From sequence record NC_105514.1: a DNA stretch of 64,000 nt. One strand, 5' to 3'. The stretch comes from Escherichia phage JLBYU40. Numbering within the stretch: position 1 is the stretch's first letter; each line of letters starts with the position of its first letter. The translations under genes and the position numbers were made by a program. Below, in pieces: positions 16 to 54,989 of the stretch. The notes under the pieces were generated by a model. The model did no database searches. It had not been told where the DNA came from and was given only the letters and a program-made list of their open reading frames with translations.

Positions 16-750
16 TTACGCAACTTTTAATTTCTCAATATATTGTTGCGGGCTGCAACTATATTCTGCGCGTTCTTCTTCGGTCATACCTTCCCAACAT
101 AATTGCAGGCGGTCGGCTAGGAACTGATAATCATTATCATCCTCAAGAGATTCATCAATAAAGGTTTCACCTATCAATGTCACGCCGATTGATAGAATAT
201 CGTTAACGGCTTGCGCATCCAGCGTTTTAAATCCGTATGATGCCGCCGCTGATAGCACGCCTTTATGATCATCAATCATTGTAAAATCAGCGTTCGGATA
301 TAATTGTTTAAATAATTCAAAATAATAAGATTTATATACTGCGTCCTTGCTGTGGTATATTTCGCTAACCTTATCAGCTTCAAAATATTTGTGTAGTGTA
401 TCGCGGGAAAATACACGGATATTACTATCCCCACGCCCTCGCAATCCTTGTTTACGCAAATAATAATAATCCGACTTGCTCATCAGTCGAGCGGTACAGA
501 TAATGTTTAACGTGTTAACATCATTCATGCACTGGCGCATATATGTAACAAGGGGCAATAGTGTATCTTGCATTATTAAATCATGTTTGCAGGCTTCATT
601 TTTATACTTATTTAAATCTAAATTGCCCTCGCTATCAAAGCAAGGCGCTACACGATGAAACGAATTAATGATAGTGCCGTCCAGATCCCAAATCATGACG
701 CGGGAAATATGCGGGAAATTACGGGTAATATTCGTTTTAACTTGATTCAT
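16..750 (-). CDS. dmp: HAD-superfamily phosphatase, likely 5'-deoxyribonucleotidase (T5 Dmp-like)
   Basis: 244 aa; N-terminal IWDLDGTI (HAD DxDGT motif); first gene of a dmp-A1-A2-like array. Confidence 0.6.
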   Translation of the reverse strand: MNQVKTNITRNFPHISRVMIWDLDGTIINSFHRVAPCFDSEGNLDLNKYKNEACKHDLIMQDTLLPLVTYMRQCMNDVNTLNIICTARLMSKSDYYYLRKQGLRGRGDSNIRVFSRDTLHKYFEADKVSEIYHSKDAVYKSYYFELFKQLYPNADFTMIDDHKGVLSAAASYGFKTLDAQAVNDILSIGVTLIGETFIDESLEDDNDYQFLADRLQLCWEGMTEEERAEYSCSPQQYIEKLKVA

Positions 751-1575: not shown

Positions 1576-3330
1576 TTACGCGAAAAATTTACCGTTTTTA
1601 AAGTCAATCAAAGTACGCTGACCGTTTGCATAGGTAATTAAATGCGTTTGCGTCCAGCTTGACGCGCCAACGTTGTAACCCATATCCAGACTACCAGCTA
1701 CGCCAGCGGTATAAACGCCGCCATAAATGCTTGCCGTATGAGTATGCCCTGTGTTTAATTTGCCCAATTTCTTAAATTGTTTCGGGTTGCCACGGCTGCC
1801 GTTAATGCCATTGTGACCGTGTACGCCGCATTCAATGCCTGCAATTTTAAATGATTGGTCAGTTGTTAGAAAAATGGCGTTAAACTCGCAACCTGCAACC
1901 TTACGCAGCGCATAATCTAGCACGTTGAAAGTATCGTCTTTTTCTGCAATAGCTCCATAAATCGCGGCATTTAGGCGGTGATATAGTTCCGCGTTTGCGG
2001 GGTCGTCTTTAATGTTAGCATTACGATCATCCAGCCAACGGGATAGCGCCAAATCGTGATTCGATTCAACAATGATCGTTTGACTAAAATCACGTTCCAT
2101 CGATTCCAGCACGCGCCCCGTATCGATAAGATCATCCAGAACTTTATCACGTCCGGCGGCATACTGTTTTGCTAGGAATACACCCGAAGCGCGGTTGTGA
2201 TGGTTGCGTGATGTAAAGTCGTGAACGTCATGGATAAACTGATATTTTGGTTTAAGAATATCAAGCAAGCTATTTTCGCCAGCCCATGACGCGGCGGCGC
2301 AATCGTCATCTAATTTTTCAGCGTGAATATCACCATATTGCAAGCCTAAAACATGCCCCGATGTTTCATAACATCCGGCGGGAGTGGCGCAAACATTCAG
2401 ATCATAAAACACGCCGCTTTCGTCCATTGTTTCAAGCTGGCGAACAAAAAATTCCCCGTCGTCGTCGAACTCAACAATCAGCGCCCCGAAATTATGCAGT
2501 GCTTCCGCTTTCTGCCCTGCTTTCTGCTGAATGTAATTTTTGAGCGTTGCCGTTCCGGTTGAATACATGCGGCGCACAATTTCACCTTTTAAAGCTGGCA
2601 CGCTTTCGGCGGTGATTTTAGCGTGACCAATTGCCAGACCTTCAAGATTAAGCGCGGTTGCAGTTTCAGCGAATCCAGATAGCGGATAGTCTGCGGTTGG
2701 CAAAACATTAATTTCAGCCATGAAAGCAAAACGGCGATTATTCAAAAACACGTTTTTGCTGCAAATATATTTATCGAACGCGGAATCATATTTTATTCCA
2801 TCCGCGCCCTCGCCATTTTGGAATCCGTTTTTATTATAAATATACTTAGAAACAAGCAAATCAGCGCCACAATATTTAGCATATTGTTCGAGCGAGGACA
2901 AAAAGTTTTTATGCGGGAACGTATTATTCTGAATCGATGTAATAATAAAGCGTTTACCCTGCTTTACTTCCCATTGTTCAACCGTGCTAGAAACAATCCC
3001 CGCCGCTTCTGGGCGCTCATCGTTTTTAATGGCTTTTGCTGCTTTCGCCGCTTTCGGTTTAGCTGGTTTATTTGCTTCCAACCAATCACAAATGGCGGTC
3101 GAGTGTTTTGTTGTATCGTAGACCGCTTTTGATATATCGTCGCAGACCTCCAGTTTAGTGGCGCGCAGACGTTTACCATAGAAATTAAAGTCAGCGGCCA
3201 TTTTCAGGATAGCGGTTTGTTTTTCTGCGGAAATAATCATAGTATAAAACTCCATTAAAGGGACTAGGTTAATAACGGCAATATTGCCAAATATAACGCC
3301 TATTATTTGAGGCGTTATAATTTGCAACAT
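1576..3330 (-). CDS. A1: pre-early A1-like protein with C-terminal metallophosphoesterase motifs
   Basis: 584 aa; C-terminal GVHGHNGINGS...GHTHT calcineurin-like motifs; size and position match T5 A1. Confidence 0.55.
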   Translation of the reverse strand: MLQIITPQIIGVIFGNIAVINLVPLMEFYTMIISAEKQTAILKMAADFNFYGKRLRATKLEVCDDISKAVYDTTKHSTAICDWLEANKPAKPKAAKAAKAIKNDERPEAAGIVSSTVEQWEVKQGKRFIITSIQNNTFPHKNFLSSLEQYAKYCGADLLVSKYIYNKNGFQNGEGADGIKYDSAFDKYICSKNVFLNNRRFAFMAEINVLPTADYPLSGFAETATALNLEGLAIGHAKITAESVPALKGEIVRRMYSTGTATLKNYIQQKAGQKAEALHNFGALIVEFDDDGEFFVRQLETMDESGVFYDLNVCATPAGCYETSGHVLGLQYGDIHAEKLDDDCAAASWAGENSLLDILKPKYQFIHDVHDFTSRNHHNRASGVFLAKQYAAGRDKVLDDLIDTGRVLESMERDFSQTIIVESNHDLALSRWLDDRNANIKDDPANAELYHRLNAAIYGAIAEKDDTFNVLDYALRKVAGCEFNAIFLTTDQSFKIAGIECGVHGHNGINGSRGNPKQFKKLGKLNTGHTHTASIYGGVYTAGVAGSLDMGYNVGASSWTQTHLITYANGQRTLIDFKNGKFFA

Positions 3331-3528
3331 TTAACTAATCGGCATTAGACTAGAACTAACACCACAAACAACGGCGGCAATAAAGCAAAGTAAGCCTAAA
3401 CGCTTTGCCAATTTAGATTTACGTTTAAAATAATATGAATCTAAATCATTTTGAAAATAAGCGAATAGTAATGAGGCCGCCATAATAAATAAACCTAGAA
3501 TTAACGATTCAGTAGGGTAAAAGATCAT
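3331..3528 (-). CDS. small membrane protein
   Basis: 65 aa, two hydrophobic segments; start abuts A1 stop. Confidence 0.4.
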   Translation of the reverse strand: MIFYPTESLILGLFIMAASLLFAYFQNDLDSYYFKRKSKLAKRLGLLCFIAAVVCGVSSSLMPIS

Positions 3529-3582
3529 TTTAATAACTCCTGATTTAAGGGAAGAAAATAACTATCGCTAAACAGTTATATT

Positions 3583-3609
3583 CTTGCCCCCTCACTAGAA
3601 GGGGGCAAG
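3583..3609 (-). terminator. strong hairpin after the A2-like gene
   Basis: 9-bp G/C stem CTTGCCCCC/GGGGGCAAG. Confidence 0.45.
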
Positions 3610-3618
3610 GTATAACTA

Positions 3619-4026
3619 TTATTCGCCTGCGGCTTGTTTCACTTCATCGGCAACGCCTAACAGTTGCGCTACGGCGTCCAGCGTTTCAAGTTTTGCACTT
3701 TCCAGACTTGCCAGATCGTCGGCGTCTTTAATAATGCCGGAATCGATAGCATGTTTAGCAATAACGCGCACGTAATGCGCTTTGCGGATTGAGCTACCGC
3801 CGCCAACTTTACGCGGCTTATCGCTTTTCTGATACGCTTTTGCGCTGGTCAATTTTGACCGAACGGATACGGGAGAAGCCGCGCCAACTGCTTTTGCAAT
3901 TTCTTTTAAACCGTCGCTATTTGCGAAATCTAAACCGTTTTCATTGATTAACTGCTGGTACATAGAAACAGCTTTCTGAGTGTTTTCTTCATTCCATGAG
4001 AATTTTGCGGTTTTAACGTTAGTCAT
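3619..4026 (-). CDS. A2: pre-early A2-like protein
   Basis: 135 aa; synteny downstream of A1-like gene; strong hairpin terminator follows at 3583-3609. Confidence 0.45.
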   Translation of the reverse strand: MTNVKTAKFSWNEENTQKAVSMYQQLINENGLDFANSDGLKEIAKAVGAASPVSVRSKLTSAKAYQKSDKPRKVGGGSSIRKAHYVRVIAKHAIDSGIIKDADDLASLESAKLETLDAVAQLLGVADEVKQAAGE

Positions 4027-4124
4027 GGTAAAAACTCCTATTAGTTTAATTTAAGGGATAAGATTAACATAATGTTAATCATTATATTCCCCATATTTCA
4101 GAGGAATATAAAGTTAACACTAAA

Positions 4125-4376
4125 TTATAAAACAGCTTCCCATTTTTCGTTGCGTTGAACAACCTTTACAACGTCGCCGGATTTAACGCGAACGCTAAAA
4201 ACGGTTTTGCCGTTGTTACTACGTTCATTTTCAGCGTATACCGCGTCGATTGTATCAAACGGCATAAGCGCCGCACCTTTAATACGTTCGGCTTTTCCGG
4301 TTAATTCATCCGTTTTAGTAACGAAAGGAATAAAAACGGATTGACCAATTTTTGGCGCGGTAATAACGTTTTTCAT
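4125..4376 (-). CDS. hypothetical protein
   Basis: 83 aa ORF. Confidence 0.4.
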   Translation of the reverse strand: MKNVITAPKIGQSVFIPFVTKTDELTGKAERIKGAALMPFDTIDAVYAENERSNNGKTVFSVRVKSGDVVKVVQRNEKWEAVL

Positions 4377-4412
4377 AGTATAAACTCCGAGTTATTTGGT
4401 GGATTGTTCCGC

Positions 4413-4439
4413 ATTACCTGCTGGAAAGTAGCAGGTAAT
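4413..4439. terminator. intergenic hairpin
   Basis: 10-bp stem ATTACCTGCT/AGCAGGTAAT with 7-nt loop. Confidence 0.4.
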
Positions 4440-4574
4440 AAGTAACAATCCGCTCGCCAGTATAATCGATTTAAAGAACTCCACGTAGGCCGCTATATCC
4501 CAGTTAGGGGGCGGGATGCATTATGGTAAGCACCGACCGTCAAATTTTATCAAGTTATCGCTCTTATCGAACTG

Positions 4575-4598
4575 GGTACATCTTAAAACCTATCGGCT
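4575..4598. repeat. left arm of 24-bp inverted repeat
   Basis: GGGTACATCTTAAAACCTATCGGC; 23/24 match to the reverse complement of 4841-4864. Confidence 0.7.
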
Positions 4599-4604
4599 AG
4601 GTTG

Positions 4605-4808
4605 TCAAACTATTTTTTGCAGTTTTTTATGATTTTCTTTCAGGTCAATCATAATATTGCGCCAGATCATTTCCAGACCTTGCTGGCGGCCTTTCTTGTA
4701 CTGCTTAAATCGCCATTTTACCGATCTTTGCGCTACTGTCAACAATTTTTTAGTTTCGCTATCCAGTGCCTTGCTAGGTTTACCAGTGATCAATAAAGTT
4801 TGTTTCAT
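4605..4808 (-). CDS. small basic protein flanked by 24-bp inverted repeats
   Basis: 67 aa, K/R-rich; bracketed by near-perfect inverted repeats at 4575-4598 and 4841-4864. Confidence 0.35.
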   Translation of the reverse strand: MKQTLLITGKPSKALDSETKKLLTVAQRSVKWRFKQYKKGRQQGLEMIWRNIMIDLKENHKKLQKIV

Positions 4809-4840
4809 ATCGTCGATTCCTTATATTATATAAGTTTACC

Positions 4841-4864
4841 GCCGATAGGCTTTAAGATGTACCC
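4841..4864. repeat. right arm of 24-bp inverted repeat
   Basis: GCCGATAGGCTTTAAGATGTACCC. Confidence 0.7.
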
Positions 4865-5581
4865 AATTTTTAAAGAGCGTGGCGGTAAACTTCCCGCCGT
4901 GTAGTTCGTCATTGCCGCCCTACGAGGTAAATACTAGCAAATACCAAAAATGGCGCAACCTTATTTTTGTAAAGAAACGTAAAGACACGATTCACCGGAT
5001 GGCGTGCGGCGACCTGGGCGCGGCGCATTAAAATTAAAGGAAACGGGCGCGCGAATACCACAAAACATAGCAGATAGGCAAGTAATTTTTTCATTTATAT
5101 TTGCTTTGCCCTACTTGACAAAATCTAAAAAGCTCAGGGTAGCGATAAACGGGCTATCCCTTTATGATGGGATGCCTGAAAAATTTACCGCGTCAGAAAG
5201 CGTTTTAGGCGGCTTATTTTCGATTTAACAAATATTTAACAAAAGCAAAATTGAAAAATAGTTGAAAAAGGTCTTGACTTTTAAAAATCAAGACTAAACG
5301 AGTTATTTTATAAAATTAATTAATTGACTTTTGTTTGTTGTTGTGTATTAGAAAGATAGCAGACTAATAATTACTAGAATGATAATCATGCTGGTGGATT
5401 GTAACAGCCTGAACCATTAGCAGACTATTAATCACGGAAAATCTCATTAGCCAACTAACTATTTCATGATATATAATATACTTATAAATTAATGAGAAAT
5501 AATAAGTATAATAAATAATAACTACAGTAAATAATAACTATAAGAAATTATCGGCCTAAGTGAGAACCACTATCATTTAAG

Positions 5582-5689
5582 TTATCCACAAGTTTATTAA
5601 CAGCACAAAATGATTTGACACGATAGGCGGCGATATAAAGACTTATCTACAGACTTATCCACAGGTTATCCTACTGTATAAATATACAG
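5582..5689. repeat. left arm of ~110-bp imperfect inverted repeat with DnaA boxes
   Basis: TTATCCACA at 5582-5590 and 5655-5663, TTATCTACA at 5643, palindrome CTGTATAAATATACAG at 5674-5689. Confidence 0.65.
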
Positions 5690-5956
5690 GGTAAATGGGT
5701 AGTATATTATAAGGATGTCGATTTTAAGCGGCCTAAAACGCTTTCTAACGAGCTAAATGCGGTGGGGTAATATTAAAGTAAAGCCTTCACCCGTCGCCCT
5801 GGTGGCTTCGCCGTGTTTTGCTCTTTATTACACCGCTGCGCGGTTATCATAAAAATATGCGCTAGGCAAGGAAAATAAAAAGGTAAAATAATCTTTGCCT
5901 ATGCTAGAAAATTACCTTTATCATTCACTCACCGATTAACGAGGGAGGCTGAACAA

Positions 5957-15721: not shown

Positions 15722-16018
15722 TTATTTCTTACCTTTCAGTTGCTTAACTTCACGCTCAAAAGATGCTGCACGACGTTCGGCAGTCGCTTGATGCTCTTTA
15801 GCAAAACGTGCTTCCTGTTTTGCAAGGTTGAATGCCATAGCATTCTTATTCAGAGAATCATACATCTTTTTCATTGCCGGAATAGACATCTTCATGAGCT
15901 GACCCTCAAATCCTTGCATGTCGAGGAGAATTGCTAATACATTGGCCATTTCAGTCTTGGTAAGGTTAGAGGCGTCGAAGTCTTTAGTCATGTTTTCCAT
16001 TAGAATTTCCTCTCTCAT
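15722..16018 (-). CDS. hypothetical protein
   Basis: 98 aa; directly downstream of early promoter 16033-16061. Confidence 0.5.
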   Translation of the reverse strand: MREEILMENMTKDFDASNLTKTEMANVLAILLDMQGFEGQLMKMSIPAMKKMYDSLNKNAMAFNLAKQEARFAKEHQATAERRAASFEREVKQLKGKK

Positions 16019-16032
16019 TAATTTATGAACTT

Positions 16033-16061
16033 ATTATACAGAATTTTAAGGCTTAAAGCAA
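16033..16061 (-). promoter_or_regulatory. early promoter (TTGCTT-17-TATAAT family)
   Basis: minus-strand -35 TTGCTT (plus AAGCAA 16056-16061), 17-bp spacer, -10 TATAAT, conserved A/T leader. Confidence 0.55.
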
Positions 16062-16078
16062 CTGAATTTTTTAATTAC

Positions 16079-16510
16079 TTACCAATCGTTAACAACGCCG
16101 GAGAACTCAGAAGCAAAAACTTTTTCAAATTTCTCTGCAATTTCAGGATGATCTTTGCAGATCAGCTCAATACATGCTTCTGGAGTCATTCCTTCATCTT
16201 CAGGATCACCATAGTATTTATCCCAAAGATCATCGGGAATGATATGCTCCGCCAAATCTTGGAAAGAGACTAACTGATAACGTTCTGCCTCCTCAGCGAT
16301 AAGAATTTCGCACAGATCTTTATCTATATCGCTACGATAATCCGCAATTAATAAGGCATTGCAAGCATGACACTCCCAAACCATCAAGCGTTCAGAAATA
16401 GGATTAGACTTATCCTGTACGTAAGACTGAAACAGGGTTCGGAAAGTTGCCTTAACTTGTTCAAACTTATCTGCTGCTGCGAAAACTAGAGCTTTATCAA
16501 CTTTGTTCAT
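16079..16510 (-). CDS. hypothetical acidic protein
   Basis: 143 aa; downstream of early promoter 16541-16569. Confidence 0.5.
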   Translation of the reverse strand: MNKVDKALVFAAADKFEQVKATFRTLFQSYVQDKSNPISERLMVWECHACNALLIADYRSDIDKDLCEILIAEEAERYQLVSFQDLAEHIIPDDLWDKYYGDPEDEGMTPEACIELICKDHPEIAEKFEKVFASEFSGVVNDW

Positions 16511-16540
16511 TTTGATTCCTTCTCATCAATTTATAAAGTA

Positions 16541-16569
16541 ATTATACAGAAACTTAAGCATTTTAGCAA
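16541..16569 (-). promoter_or_regulatory. early promoter
   Basis: -35 TTGCTA, 17-bp spacer, -10 TATAAT; leader ATAAATTGATGAGAAGG. Confidence 0.55.
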
Positions 16570-16677
16570 ATAAAACTTTTAATTAAAATGCCTAATCCTG
16601 TGCCAATAGCAATACAAATGATTATAAGTATTGCTATCGCCTGTATGATTCGTTTAATAATAACCTCAGCTATATAC

Positions 16678-17271
16678 TTAGACATTTATATCGCCACGCA
16701 ATACAGCAGCTACGTCTTCTCCTATTTGTAATACCTCGCCGGTAGTACAATTAACCACTCTATCGTAACTAGTAAACTTACCAGACACAATATCCTCTAG
16801 TGGAATTGGAGTTCTACTCATTTCAAATGAGACATTAATATAACGTGGATCACGTAAAGAAGTAGTATGTACATGTCCGTGAATATTTAGTTTGCCACGA
16901 AGTTCATTGGGATGCAAAGGGCAGTGAGATAGCCAAAACTTTTTGCCACCTCCAGTCTGTTTGCCTAGAGCTTGAATATCGTCATAAACTTCCGCTAAGT
17001 CCCTAATACTCAGTCCTTGACGCTCCGCATCATGATTACCCATAATGAGTTGATTAGGGACATTGTGGATAACCGACTTTAATTTGGCCAGACCTTCACG
17101 ACCTACTGCAATATCTCCTAGCAAAATAAGTTTTGTTCGTTTACCAATATGCTTGGATAAAGTATCTAGAATATACTCATCGTGCTCTTTCATGTTCTTA
17201 AACCACGGACGGAAACGTAGTGCTCCAGGGTGGTCTAAGTGCAAGTCTGACCAGAATTTAACCTTCATCAC
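16678..17271 (-). CDS. metallophosphoesterase (calcineurin-like)
   Basis: 197 aa; motifs DLHLD, GDIAVGREG, GNHD, GHVHT. Confidence 0.6.
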   Translation of the reverse strand: MMKVKFWSDLHLDHPGALRFRPWFKNMKEHDEYILDTLSKHIGKRTKLILLGDIAVGREGLAKLKSVIHNVPNQLIMGNHDAERQGLSIRDLAEVYDDIQALGKQTGGGKKFWLSHCPLHPNELRGKLNIHGHVHTTSLRDPRYINVSFEMSRTPIPLEDIVSGKFTSYDRVVNCTTGEVLQIGEDVAAVLRGDINV

Positions 17272-17555
17272 TTACTCCTTTTTTGTATTAAATTATCAAC
17301 CCAGGTAGTTAATACTCTAGTTTTAAACTCCTCGGGAGTCTCTCCTTCCTTAAGGTCTACCTCATTAAGGTAGGTAGTAAGCCTTGTTTCTATCTCTATT
17401 TCAGCAGGAGAATTAAAACAAAAATTGACTGCTATTCCAGAATATATTACTCCGGTATCCCCTTTGACGAAAGCATTAACTAATGCTCTCCAACGAAGGG
17501 CATCAATACGCATTGCTCGTAATTCTTCTCGTACTTCTTTCATTCTATCATTCAT
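17268..17555 (-). CDS. hypothetical protein
   Basis: 95 aa ORF. Confidence 0.4.
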   Translation of the reverse strand: MNDRMKEVREELRAMRIDALRWRALVNAFVKGDTGVIYSGIAVNFCFNSPAEIEIETRLTTYLNEVDLKEGETPEEFKTRVLTTWVDNLIQKRSK

Positions 17556-18430
17556 TAAAGAATCCTCTGTACACCGCAGCTATCAATTTTGTCTGTGGTA
17601 AATGTGGTGATTTTGCCAGTTTCATCGTTAACTTGCGCAACCGTCAACTGCCCGTTGAAAACACCGCCAGTATCAAGATAAACACGGTTCTGGTATAAAA
17701 TCGGGTAGGGTACTCCAGTATGCCCATGAAATACAAAGTCTACTCCATTAACTGGGGGTACTTCTACCATGTATTTTTCCTTAAATCCTGCATAACGCTG
17801 GAAATACGGGTGTTCCTCCCCATTTTTGGACAAGTAGAAGCCTATTTCTTGGATTACATCTCGATCCCATAAATATGGTTCAATATGGTATCCAGGATGG
17901 TCATGTGGGTCTTCCTTAGCTGCTTCTACTTGTGCAATAAGATTATCCCATACTGGGGTTTCTACTTCATTACCACATTCTTTGTACGTAAAAGGTACAC
18001 CACCATGAACAACACCAAACTTCTTACCACGATGTCTAACAGTTAGGAATACTGGCATTTTTTCAGCCATATCTTCGGCAATATTTTTAATTGTGTCTGC
18101 ATCTAGTTCATTCATGGCCCACATACCCCCATTATACATCCAATTAGTCCAATCTCCCACAATCATAAATTGATCATGATTACCACGGACACTGATAAAA
18201 CGTGGATTATATAGGAATTTGGCTAAAACTTGTAGGTTTTGTGTGCCTCGGTCAATTAAGTCACCAACACATACTACGCAATCTTTTTTGCTATTATAGC
18301 CAGCCAATTTCAACGCATCTTCTAGCAAATCATTGCATCCATGAATATCACCAACGAAAAACAAGTTGGCATCATCCGGCACTACTAGAGTTTTATGTAC
18401 ATTAAATTCTTTTTTCATAATTATTCCCAA
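17555..18430 (-). CDS. Ser/Thr protein phosphatase (PPP family)
   Basis: 291 aa; GDIHG, GDLIDRG, RGNHD motifs. Confidence 0.7.
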   Translation of the reverse strand: MGIIMKKEFNVHKTLVVPDDANLFFVGDIHGCNDLLEDALKLAGYNSKKDCVVCVGDLIDRGTQNLQVLAKFLYNPRFISVRGNHDQFMIVGDWTNWMYNGGMWAMNELDADTIKNIAEDMAEKMPVFLTVRHRGKKFGVVHGGVPFTYKECGNEVETPVWDNLIAQVEAAKEDPHDHPGYHIEPYLWDRDVIQEIGFYLSKNGEEHPYFQRYAGFKEKYMVEVPPVNGVDFVFHGHTGVPYPILYQNRVYLDTGGVFNGQLTVAQVNDETGKITTFTTDKIDSCGVQRIL

Positions 18431-18666
18431 ATAACAGTTAAAATAGTTGTGCCATAATCATTAGATAGTTGGAGAGTATAACCCTCTTTATAGAGGGCTT
18501 TTATAGCTTCATAACTAATTTCATCACGATTAAACTGCACAAAAGAACCCCCAATTCCCACAGAAGAAACTATTCTCTTTTTAACATACTTATATGGTTT
18601 CTTTCTGCTATTAAGGAGTGCAGCTCTATTTATCCTGGCTAAACATTTTGCTTGTTCCGCTAACAT
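18421..18666 (-). CDS. hypothetical protein
   Basis: 81 aa ORF. Confidence 0.4.
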   Translation of the reverse strand: MLAEQAKCLARINRAALLNSRKKPYKYVKKRIVSSVGIGGSFVQFNRDEISYEAIKALYKEGYTLQLSNDYGTTILTVIWE

Positions 18667-18670
18667 TTAA

Positions 18671-19075
18671 TTATCTCCAGTGGTTAGTATGCTTCTCAGC
18701 TTCTGTATCATTTGGCTCAAAGACAACATGACAATCAATAGCTTCCCAGAAAGCTTCACGGATTAAAGAGTTTTTAGCTATAATATCCAACTCTTCCCAT
18801 TCTTCTAATGTTTCTAGATCTGTATCAACTTCGGTATCACAGCCAACCAGCCCCAAAGAAACAACAATAGTAACGCGATCTTCACGTTGTTCGGGATAAA
18901 CATCAGCATATTCCCAAGCAGCTTCTTCAACATAATATTGTTGTTCCTTTTCTGGAAGTGACTTATACTTTTCTTCTGTAATACCCATCTCAACGGCGCG
19001 AGTACCACAAACTACATTGTTATTAATAATTAGATATGCATAGTTCATCGTAATACTCCTATTTCTTGGGGGCAA
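18671..19075 (-). CDS. hypothetical acidic protein
   Basis: 134 aa ORF. Confidence 0.45.
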   Translation of the reverse strand: MPPRNRSITMNYAYLIINNNVVCGTRAVEMGITEEKYKSLPEKEQQYYVEEAAWEYADVYPEQREDRVTIVVSLGLVGCDTEVDTDLETLEEWEELDIIAKNSLIREAFWEAIDCHVVFEPNDTEAEKHTNHWR

Positions 19076-19126
19076 AGATAGTCATTAATATGACTAAAAT
19101 CCGTACAAAGATAGATGATGTAATCA

Positions 19127-19345
19127 TTATCTCCACCGTGGATAGTCATTACAGGTATATTTAAATTCAATTTTCTGAGTAGGAGTAAATATCATATCAC
19201 CATTGGTGCTAATAGATGTAAGAGTAGTAGATACTGTTCGCATTTCTTGCGTTTGTACACAGTTCTGGGCTGCCATTTCTTGGGCATCCTTAGCTTTATA
19301 ATAGGCTTGTACCACTACCTTACCCAAGTGATTATATAATATCAT
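19127..19345 (-). CDS. hypothetical protein
   Basis: 72 aa ORF. Confidence 0.4.
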   Translation of the reverse strand: MILYNHLGKVVVQAYYKAKDAQEMAAQNCVQTQEMRTVSTTLTSISTNGDMIFTPTQKIEFKYTCNDYPRWR

Positions 19346-19445
19346 TAATTAATCCTCCCATCAATTTATATAAGTATTATACCAAAATTTTTAGCAAAAA
19401 GCAAGTAAAATAAAAGCCTGATCAGCTAAGATCAGGCTTTGTTTA

Positions 19446-53085: not shown

Positions 53086-53114
53086 AGTAGTCTTAGTTAG
53101 AGAAGGAGGGTGTA

Positions 53115-54989
53115 ATGAATCGTAATGAAGAACTAAAATATAAAGAAATGCAGGCGTTAATTAGAAACTGCAAAGAGATTATCGAAGGGTCAGCAGATGA
53201 AGAGCTGCTGTTTAATAATGCTAATAAACCCTCAGAACGTTTCCCTACACAAAGGGATATGCTTGCAGGTGAATTGAGTAAGTATCTAATTCTAGAAGAA
53301 ATGCCAATTCAGATTCGAAATGCTCATATGATTGGGGATATTCATTTCCATGATGCTGATTATGCTGCATTAGGCATGACTAACTGTTGCCTGGTAGCTC
53401 TGGAAGATATGTTGAAGAATGGTATGAAGGTTGGTAATGCTGAAATTAGCACTCCAAACTCTATCACTACTGCGGCGGCTATTACTGCTCAGATTATCAC
53501 TCAGGTTAGCTCCCATCAGTATGGTGGTACTTCTGTAGATCGCCTTGATGAAGTATTAGCCCCTTATGTTCGTAAATCCTATGACAAAAATCATGCGTTT
53601 GCAAAACGCTGGACTAAGGATGAGGCCAAAGCATCCGTAATGGCTACGGAGATGACTGAAAAAGAAGTCTATGATGCTTGTCAGGGTCTAGAGTATGAGA
53701 TCAATACGATGTTCAACTCTAATGGTCAGAGTCCATTTATTACCTTTGGTTTTGGTCTAGGAACTTCTTGGGAAGCTCGTCTAGTACAGAAAGCAATACT
53801 GAAAGTACGTATGGATGGTTTAGGTATCAATAAACGTACAGCTATCTTCCCGAAACTGGTATTTGTACTTCGTGATGGAGTAAATATGAAACCAGGAGAT
53901 GTTAATTATGACATCAAGAAGTTAGCTATGAAATGTACTGCTGAACGTATGTATCCAGATTATATCAGCTATGACAAAGTTGTAGAAGTTACTGGAGACT
54001 ACAAAGTTTCTATGGGCTGCCGTTCATTCCTAGCTGCTACAGAAGATGGTGAAACTGCAGGTCGTAATAACTTAGGTGTTGTTTCTGTAAACTTGCCTAG
54101 AATTGCTATCGAAGCTGAAGGAAATATTGACCTATTCTTTGATTTGCTTGAGCTACGTGTAGATACAGCATTAAAAGCGTTGGAGTGGAGAGTTGATCGC
54201 TTAAAATACATTCAAGCTAAAGCTGCACCCATCCTCTATATGTCAGGAGCCTTTGGGTTACGCTTAGGGCCTGATGAATATGTATTTGATCATTTCTATA
54301 ACCGTGCTTCTGTATCTCTAGGGTATATTGGTTGCCATGAAATGCTACAGTTCATGTTTGGCAAAGATGTAGACACAATGTCCGAGACCTGCATTAAGTT
54401 TGTTCAGCGTGTATTGCAGTACATGCGAGATAGAGTCGATCAGAAGAAGGAAGAAACTAAGTTAGGTTATAGCCTGTATGCTACACCATCAGAATCCCTA
54501 TGTGATCGTTTTTGTCGTCTAGACCGTGAATATTTCCCGGAGCATGAAGATATTCTGTCTAAAGGATACTACACTAACTCGCACCACCTTGATGTAGAAC
54601 GCAAAGTTGCTCCCAATGTGAAATTTGATTATGAATCTAATTTTACTCCGATTGCTTCTGGTGGGTGCATTTCCTATGTAGAACTACCAGATATGAAACG
54701 ATTCCCAGATGCACTGGAATGGGTTATTAATTATGCTGCTAGTAAAGTTCATTACTTCGGTATTAATACTCCAGTGGATTCTTGTGGTAAATGTGGATTC
54801 TTAGGTGAAACAATAGCATCCGAAGATGGATTTAAGTGCCCTATCTGTGGTAATCATGACCCCGAAACTCTTGAAGTAACTCGTCGAGTTTGTGGGTATC
54901 TTGGAAATCCAGGTGCTCGTCCATTTAACCCGGGCAAACAGCACGAGGTTATGGGCAGAGTGAAACATCAGGATATTCGAGCTAAATAA
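53115..54989 (+). CDS. nrdD: anaerobic ribonucleoside-triphosphate reductase (class III)
   Basis: 624 aa; C-terminal RRVCGYLG glycyl-radical motif and CxxC zinc ribbon. Confidence 0.75.
   Translation: MNRNEELKYKEMQALIRNCKEIIEGSADEELLFNNANKPSERFPTQRDMLAGELSKYLILEEMPIQIRNAHMIGDIHFHDADYAALGMTNCCLVALEDMLKNGMKVGNAEISTPNSITTAAAITAQIITQVSSHQYGGTSVDRLDEVLAPYVRKSYDKNHAFAKRWTKDEAKASVMATEMTEKEVYDACQGLEYEINTMFNSNGQSPFITFGFGLGTSWEARLVQKAILKVRMDGLGINKRTAIFPKLVFVLRDGVNMKPGDVNYDIKKLAMKCTAERMYPDYISYDKVVEVTGDYKVSMGCRSFLAATEDGETAGRNNLGVVSVNLPRIAIEAEGNIDLFFDLLELRVDTALKALEWRVDRLKYIQAKAAPILYMSGAFGLRLGPDEYVFDHFYNRASVSLGYIGCHEMLQFMFGKDVDTMSETCIKFVQRVLQYMRDRVDQKKEETKLGYSLYATPSESLCDRFCRLDREYFPEHEDILSKGYYTNSHHLDVERKVAPNVKFDYESNFTPIASGGCISYVELPDMKRFPDALEWVINYAASKVHYFGINTPVDSCGKCGFLGETIASEDGFKCPICGNHDPETLEVTRRVCGYLGNPGARPFNPGKQHEVMGRVKHQDIRAK

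Follow-up and report, generated by a model that had tools for sequence, protein, structure and literature searches.

The locus studied here raises the question of what two phosphoesterases that are encoded close together by Escherichia phage JLBYU40 (NC_105514.1) do in the infected cell, and whether they work as a pair. The analyzed stretch of 64,000 nucleotides (the window) is the left part of a T5-like phage (Tequintavirus, family Demerecviridae) and is 91-97% identical to Tequintavirus genomes; the region of interest, 16400-18700, shows 94-97% DNA identity to many Escherichia and Salmonella Tequintavirus genomes. An earlier sequence-only reading had placed a metallophosphoesterase (MPP; here P1) at 16678-17271 and a PPP-family Ser/Thr phosphatase (here P2) at 17555-18430, and both open reading frames (ORFs) are present on the minus strand at these coordinates. 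It had suggested that the phage may reverse phosphorylation-based signalling or nucleotide second messengers of its host. P1 and P2 are the orthologues of the syntenic genes T5.034 and T5.035, which are named 'phosphoesterase' and 'NinI-like serine-threonine phosphatase' in the reference T5 genome (NC_005859). The gene pair is therefore already annotated, ordinary and known. The explanation favoured here, to which we assign a probability of about 0.6 as a whole, is that P2 is an intact PPP-type phosphomonoesterase, P1 is a diesterase-like enzyme and both are accessory proteins that act independently.

The most likely start codons are an ATG at 18418 for P2 and an ATG at 17268 for P1, the latter with an AAGGAG Shine-Dalgarno sequence upstream and a GTGATG overlap with the preceding stop. 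These starts are preferred because they yield proteins of 287 and 196 amino acids, the lengths of all database homologues. For P2 (17555-18418, minus strand) the assignment to the PPP family was borne out, as Pfam Metallophos (E 2.3e-16), PHROG 246 'NinI-like serine-threonine phosphatase' (E 8.6e-93) and the structure of lambda phosphatase (PDB 1g5b, E 1e-31) all match. In an alignment of 44 homologues reaching down to about 36% identity, PPP motif I (GDxHG) is present as GDIHG with invariant D24 and H26. Motif II reads GDLIDRG, with G52, D53, D56, R57 and G58 invariant and either I or V at position 55. Motif III reads GNHD, a conservative variant of GNHE, in which N80 and H81 are invariant; the motif ends in D in 34 homologues and in E in the other 10. 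The downstream metal-ligand histidines H138 and H233 and a second arginine, R186, are invariant as well. Residues D24, H26, D53, D56, R57, N80, H81, H138, R186 and H233 of P2 correspond to D20, H22, D49, D52, R53, N75, H76, H139, R162 and H186 of lambda phosphatase. The AlphaFold model of P2 is a confident single domain (pLDDT 94.5), and its closest fold is lambda phosphatase, which places P2 in the lambda branch of the PPP family. This combination of sequence and model shows P2 to be intact, both in structure and in catalytic residues, as a PPP enzyme of the lambda-phosphatase type with a full monoesterase active site, comprising the ligands of two metals, the Asp-Arg pair of motif II, the second arginine and the motif-III histidine.

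For a catalytically intact member of this family, dephosphorylation of host phosphoproteins is a reasonable default. P2 would be a Mn2+-dependent phosphomonoesterase whose most probable substrates are proteins of the infected cell phosphorylated on Ser, Thr or Tyr, and its action may reset kinase-dependent stress or defence signalling. The suggested reversal of host phosphorylation signalling is plausible for P2 at the level of its family, the assignment to which is sound. Solved structures align with at most about 219 of the 287 residues of P2. The additional residues form two helical insertions, at about 143-183 and 190-222, which are unmatched by any solved structure. In the alignment, the longer form of the second insertion occurs only in closer relatives, down to about 50-55% identity (for example Pectobacterium phage My1), and distant homologues are much shorter there. 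This helical insertion of the T5 lineage, about 70 residues in total, probably shapes the substrate choice of P2. P2-like genes were found in 1,441 phage records.

Several narrower assignments of P2 were rejected. The best NCBIfam models were PrpA and PrpB, followed by ApaH, but P2 reaches only 99.4 and 80.8 bits against the PrpA and PrpB equivalog cut-offs of 326 and 332. The two ApaH models score 59.8 bits against 176 and 35.3 against 222.85, and cover only the N-terminal half. Bacterial Pnkp scores 36.3 bits against 750, and its kinase-phosphatase-ligase architecture is absent from the single-domain P2. A substrate class related to the last two families was nevertheless considered, namely nucleotides or nucleic-acid ends, either 2',3'-cyclic phosphate or 3'-phosphate RNA ends as for Pnkp or Ap4A/Np4N caps as for ApaH. 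This possibility draws on the match of P2 to the NCBIfam ApaH model PRK00166 (E 2.5e-16) and on a match of residues 12-151 to PHROG 8238 'RNA ligase' (E 5e-12); the latter match might stem from a phosphatase module contained in this 737-position model. In addition, the gene after the P2 homologue in Vibrio phage phi 3 (region 2522-5708) bears the annotation 'RNA ligase/tail attachment protein'. However, the annotation of T5 over the syntenic 10-68 kb contains neither a polynucleotide kinase nor an RNA ligase as a partner, and the ApaH cap does not match the helical insertion of P2, no more than 212 residues being aligned. We consider action on nucleotides or nucleic-acid ends rather unlikely. 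Vibrio phage phi 3, a distant member of the Demerecviridae, also carries a ribose-phosphate pyrophosphokinase-like gene about 2.4 kb downstream of its P2 homologue, and these genes could form an accessory cluster directed at nucleotides or RNA.

P1 (16678-17268, minus strand) was confirmed as a metallophosphoesterase by Pfam and PHROG matches and by a full set of MPP motifs. It exceeds the Pfam Metallophos (PF00149) cut-off of 21.5 bits marginally, with 21.9 bits, matches Metallophos_2 with E 4.5e-5, and matches PHROG 547 'phosphoesterase' with E 3.9e-57. The residues D8, H10, G51, D52, N78, H79, H115, H130 and H132, which make up the five MPP motifs DxH, GD, GNH[DE], H and GHxH, are invariant in all 45 homologues. 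The clade-specific residues H119, H134 and Y143 are likewise invariant, and R124, D140, R142 and N145 are nearly so. The closest fold and sequence family are aq_1665 (PDB 1xm7) and PHROG 547, and P1 is accordingly described as a small binuclear MPP of the aq_1665 clade. Its model is confidently folded. In comparison with P1, lambda phosphatase reaches 9.3 and Rv0805 reaches 7.8.

The earlier reading had recommended profile searches to separate protein phosphatases from cyclic-nucleotide phosphodiesterases. Many GenBank records label P1 a PPP protein phosphatase, but the GDxVDRG motif with its conserved arginine was not found. A close structural or sequence relationship to the class III cyclic-nucleotide phosphodiesterases (CpdA/Rv0805) was not found either. 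The position four residues into motif II is G, D, T, N or S, and the following one is arginine in only 18 of 45 homologues, while the motif-III histidine is kept. Keppetipola and Shuman reported that the motif-II arginine (R53 of lambda phosphatase) is essential for monoesterase but dispensable for diesterase activity, that it is absent from the diesterase-only MPPs Mre11, MJ0936, Rv0805 and YfcE, and that the motif-III histidine is linked to cyclic-nucleotide hydrolysis (PMC2190708). As P1 lacks a conserved motif-II arginine, whereas P2 has the Asp-Arg pair in 44 of 44 homologues, its chemistry is predicted to be of the diesterase or pyrophosphatase type. In that case P1 would cleave phosphodiester or pyrophosphate bonds, and its substrate would be a nucleotide or a nucleic acid.

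Such chemistry would also suit a DNA or RNA nuclease similar to PdeM or SbcD/Mre11, with a role in phage replication, recombination or breakdown of host nucleic acids. The only NCBIfam match of P1 is indeed PdeM (E 1.2e-5), and the active site without motif-II arginine resembles that of Mre11. The score of 24.8 bits is, however, far below the PdeM cut-off of 150, and an assignment of P1 to the ligase-associated endonucleases (PdeM/MPE) was rejected on this account. Genome neighbourhoods bear on the same point. The P1 family is very large (21,950 representative clusters when E <= 1e-3 is required, 14,982 with E <= 1e-10), and members were found in 1,389 phage records that belong to unrelated virulent groups; among the phages inspected directly are Kayvirus, T4-like Acinetobacter and Vibrio phages, Kuttervirus, Kuravirus and jumbo phages. 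In Acinetobacter phage Lazarus the P1 homologue (3492-4103) lies between the recombination nuclease genes gp47 (SbcD-like) and gp46 (SbcC-like), and in SU10 it is located near the DNA polymerase. A Kuttervirus has it near DexA, QueC and dCMP deaminase. Its neighbours in a putative prophage include DNA pol A, an RNase T-like gene and dCMP deaminase, and those in a 126-kb phage contig include ThyX, PhoH and GMP synthase. This tendency towards replication, recombination and nucleotide-metabolism genes is a weak hint at nucleotide or nucleic-acid substrates. The association is weakened by the general abundance of replication genes in the early regions of virulent phages, and in Kayvirus all neighbours of the P1 homologue are hypothetical. 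Furthermore, the pre-early protein A1 alone has been reported in a 2026 preprint to be necessary and sufficient for degradation of host DNA by T5. A nuclease function of P1 is thus judged to be a minority possibility.

The two enzymes do not appear to be copies of each other or parts of one machine. Comparison of their profiles by hhalign gave a match (probability 90%) that is confined to motifs I-III, which indicates that P1 and P2 belong to separate MPP lineages and are not duplicates. They are linked in Tequintavirus relatives, and several pairs of homologues were taken to share a contig because the longest contigs carrying the P1 and the P2 homologue were equal in length. An obligate pair was nevertheless rejected, as no P1 adjoins P2 in Sugarlandvirus and Vibrio phage phi 3, and many unrelated phages carry a P1 homologue on its own. 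Independence is further supported by an exchange at the locus. A blastn comparison of the window with T5 and phage OSYSP revealed no nucleotide similarity to T5 at 16689-17550, a segment that holds P1 and the 95-amino-acid gene preceding it, and homology breaks off at the stop codons of the two phosphoesterase genes. Since homology breaks exactly at these positions, the 95-amino-acid gene and P1 replace T5.034 as a cassette. P1 is a divergent T5.034 allele that was swapped in this way while P2 stayed 94% conserved.

A third phosphoesterase had been listed alongside P1 and P2, a metallophosphatase-like A1. In the C-terminal half of A1 (1576-3330, minus strand; phrog_1745) the motifs GDIH, HD, SNHD, GxHGH and GHTH were recognized, and 27 homologues share an invariant D-x-H / D / N-H / H / H-x-H series in MPP order (D44, H46, D78, N134, H135, H214, H239 and H241 in the numbering of the C-terminal fragment). 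The preprint cited above also predicts A1 to be a metallo-phosphatase. The description of A1 as a putative MPP draws on these residues and this prediction; profile methods did not detect the relationship. A1 had no match in Pfam, and a PDB profile search yielded no metallophosphoesterase, the sole match at E <= 1 being an unrelated 3-dehydroquinate dehydratase (E 0.0025). Alignment of A1 with the P1 family by hhalign was non-significant both with single sequences and with profiles (profile probability 4.8%). The placement of A1 in the early region proved incorrect, as the gene is located in the pre-early DNA of the first-step transfer. P1 and P2 may act independently of A1 as well as of each other. 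The listed A1 ORF (584 amino acids) has an N-terminal extension: the PHROG alignment starts at residue 38 and internal methionines occur at 26 and 30, so that translation probably begins further downstream than the first ATG.

What the enzymes contribute to infection can be approached from dispensability. Both T5.034 and T5.035 were classified as 'Not Fit', that is dispensable, in a transcriptome-wide CRISPRi-ART knock-down screen of T5 on a laboratory host (PMC11879866, supplementary file 16), and lambda ninI is non-essential (PMC10695390). Dispensability on a laboratory host fits an accessory, host-interaction role without identifying that role, and P1 and P2 would be accessory genes that such a host does not call for. 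Literature searches on the function of T5.034 and T5.035, on phage phosphatases in kinase-based defence and on the aq_1665/cd07390 clade yielded no functional study, but only the fitness table of the CRISPRi-ART screen and a use of T5.035 as a marker in phylogeny. HIDEN-SEQ does not mention T5-like phages or the two genes, and the Clover paper (PMC12265719) covers T5-like phages with respect to Dmp and NrdAB only.

The same dispensability could be taken as a sign that P1 and P2 have lost their activity and are now relics or pseudo-enzymes functioning as binding proteins, as could the score of P1 just above the Pfam Metallophos threshold. Yet all metal-ligand and catalytic residues are invariant across 44-45 homologues, to about 35% identity, and both models are confidently folded. 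Loss of activity is therefore highly improbable, and both proteins are predicted to be active enzymes with MPP folds rather than inactive proteins or unrelated folds, the outcome that the earlier reading had named as its refutation.

A host-interaction role might alternatively consist in the destruction of nucleotide immune signals by P1, P2 or both, directed at cyclic mono-, di- or oligonucleotides or ADP-ribose derivatives of CBASS, Pycsar, Thoeris or type III CRISPR systems. The diesterase-type site of P1 keeps the motif-III histidine, both genes are probably expressed early and are dispensable on a laboratory host lacking such defence systems, and the P1 cassette was exchanged between close relatives, as is often seen with counter-defence loci. 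However, when P1, P2 and four small proteins from neighbouring genes were scanned with PADLOC, none of them matched a model. To our knowledge, the phage enzymes known to degrade such signals belong to other folds: Acb1 is a 2H phosphoesterase and Apyc1 has a metallo-beta-lactamase fold. The P1 family, with about 15,000 clusters at E <= 1e-10 in phages of Gram-positive and Gram-negative hosts, points to a general rather than a system-specific function, and T5.035 is so well conserved among T5-like phages that it serves as a marker gene in phylogeny. Degradation of immune signals is considered very unlikely. The suggestion that nucleotide second messengers are reversed found no specific support: P1 is diesterase-like by the make-up of its active site, the PADLOC scan was negative, and the family is very large and spread over many unrelated virulent phages.

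Kinase-driven anti-phage toxicity exists in enterobacteria in the form of KKP modules (PMC11341870), and as kinase-based toxicity is a real anti-phage mechanism there, a counter-kinase role of P2 is conceivable. In its most extended form this would make P2 a counter-defence enzyme that erases phosphorylation by KKP-like Ser/Thr kinases or HipA-like toxins, with the insertion giving specificity. The exchangeable cassette of P1 and the 95-amino-acid gene might be a second, diversifying counter-measure against a nucleotide-type signal or a damaged nucleic-acid end, and the locus as a whole a small anti-defence island. We regard this scenario as speculative and decidedly unlikely.

Some observations weigh against the favoured explanation of an intact P2 monoesterase and a diesterase-like P1 in an early accessory unit. 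Lambda phosphatase also cleaves diesters (bis-p-nitrophenyl phosphate) and 2',3'-cyclic nucleotides (PMC2190708), and by analogy 'protein phosphatase' may be read as a family label for P2 and not as a demonstrated role. In P1, R124 is present in 43 and R142 in 41 of 45 homologues; these arginines could replace the phosphate contacts of the motif-II arginine, which would leave monoesterase activity possible. The knock-down data come from T5, and the P1 allele there shares no more than 53% identity with the one studied here. Early expression of both genes is deduced from synteny with T5 and from matches to promoter consensus sequences, and promoter-like sites in the region showed no enrichment over shuffled sequences. 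The substrates proposed for P1 and P2 are likewise read from sequence.

The arrangement of the genes was analyzed for signs of coexpression. The window comprises pre-early first-step-transfer DNA followed by a block of early genes on the minus strand; alignment of its first 14 kb with Tequintavirus genomes begins near position 109 of the latter, and this part carries dmp, A1 and A2. P1 and P2 had been described as two genes apart, but only one gene, of 95 amino acids (17268-17555, minus strand; phrog_14979), separates them. T5 itself lacks this gene, which overlaps the P2 stop (TAATG) and the P1 start (GTGATG). Upstream of P2 lies an 81-amino-acid gene (18421-18666, minus strand; phrog_7354), the T5.036 orthologue, and downstream of P1 an ORF for a hydrophobic peptide of 40 amino acids (16563-16685, minus strand; phrog_21849), which is annotated in phage OSYSP. 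The ATG of this peptide overlaps the last codons of P1 (ATGTCTAA), and it appears to be translationally coupled to P1 as the last gene of a coupled chain. Overlapping or near-abutting stops and starts are found along this chain from the 81-amino-acid gene through P2, the 95-amino-acid gene and P1 to the peptide. The two evolutionarily separate binuclear MPPs are probably translationally coupled within one early transcription unit.

A sigma-70-like promoter candidate at 19336-19364 on the minus strand (TTGATG-17-TATTAT with TG), recognized by its match to the consensus only, is positioned directly downstream of a hairpin resembling a bidirectional intrinsic terminator (19413-19440; perfect 11-bp stem with T-runs on both strands) that follows the thioredoxin gene. 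T5 annotates a promoter and a terminator at the syntenic positions. The candidate is likely the start of a unit that contains ORFs of 72 and 134 amino acids, the 81-amino-acid gene, P2, the 95-amino-acid gene, P1 and the 40-amino-acid peptide. This unit would be bounded upstream by the hairpin and the promoter-like site, and downstream by a promoter-like site of the next unit (16541-16569, minus strand; TTGCTA-17-TATAAT), which is syntenic with T5 promoter P-F30. In T5 itself, T5.036 heads the transcription unit holding the counterparts of P2 and P1, whereas here two extra ORFs precede it. They are located on a 677-nucleotide insertion relative to T5 and OSYSP (18672-19348), between the terminator and promoter and the 81-amino-acid gene, and encode proteins of 134 (18671-19075; DUF7167, phrog_6798) and 72 amino acids (19127-19345; phrog_8826). 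The label 'major head protein', which phrog_7354 and several GenBank records give to the 81-amino-acid gene, is implausible for such a small protein of the early block and is likely a spread annotation error. Two segments of about 70 nucleotides each, 16006-16077 and 16516-16585, are related in that either one matches the T5 counterpart of the other with about 79% identity; as both coincide with annotated T5 promoter features, they represent a repeated early-promoter module.

The remaining window was also searched for phosphoesterases. Three family profiles and a motif scan identified no further MPP among all its ORFs, and a GNHD motif in 53097-54986 was rejected because it belongs to NrdD. 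A phosphatase of non-MPP type is the pre-early 5'-deoxyribonucleotidase Dmp (16-750, minus strand), for which a role in remodelling the deoxynucleoside-triphosphate pool has been described (PMC12265719). Dmp has no Pfam match and matches PHROG 415 'polynucleotide kinase' (E 8.8e-57), which is read as a likely kinship with phosphatase domains of the polynucleotide kinase-phosphatase type.

The practical gain of these results is a better annotation of a gene pair shared by hundreds of genomes of T5-like phages, including several phages under study for biocontrol or therapy. P1 in particular is often mislabelled 'serine/threonine protein phosphatase' in GenBank, although it fails the motif that defines the PPP family and its chemistry is probably diesterase-like. 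Added here are a sharper classification of P1 and P2, the lineage-specific insertion of P2, the swap of the P1 cassette and the link to published dispensability data. If P1 or P2 were truly to counter host defence, it would represent a new enzyme class among the known phage counter-defences.

Comparison with known systems places the pair closest to T5.034 and T5.035, which share locus, order and strand with the genes described here and are flanked by DNA of 88-97% identity. P2 is 94% identical to T5.035, whereas P1 is 53% identical to T5.034, shows no similarity to it at the DNA level, is accompanied by the extra 95-amino-acid gene and has a C-terminal segment of about 30 additional residues that T5.034 lacks. 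Lambda NinI (PDB 1g5b), whose relatives in E. coli are PrpA and PrpB, has 221 amino acids and a GNHE motif and is encoded in the nin region of a temperate phage, whereas P2 has 287 amino acids, a GNHD motif and the two helical insertions beyond NinI, and belongs to an early operon of a virulent phage. P2 differs from ApaH and from the 2',3'-phosphatase module of Pnkp in that it remains below the family cut-offs, has no kinase or ligase module and shows no match to the ApaH cap. MPE/PdeM of Pseudomonas putida (PDB 6nvo) is a Mn-dependent single-stranded DNA endonuclease; P1 lacks the ligase or Lhr operon context of this enzyme, and non-nuclease MPPs are as close to P1 as PdeM. The nearest relative of P1 by fold, Aquifex aeolicus aq_1665, is a structural-genomics protein, and this match classifies P1 without explaining it.

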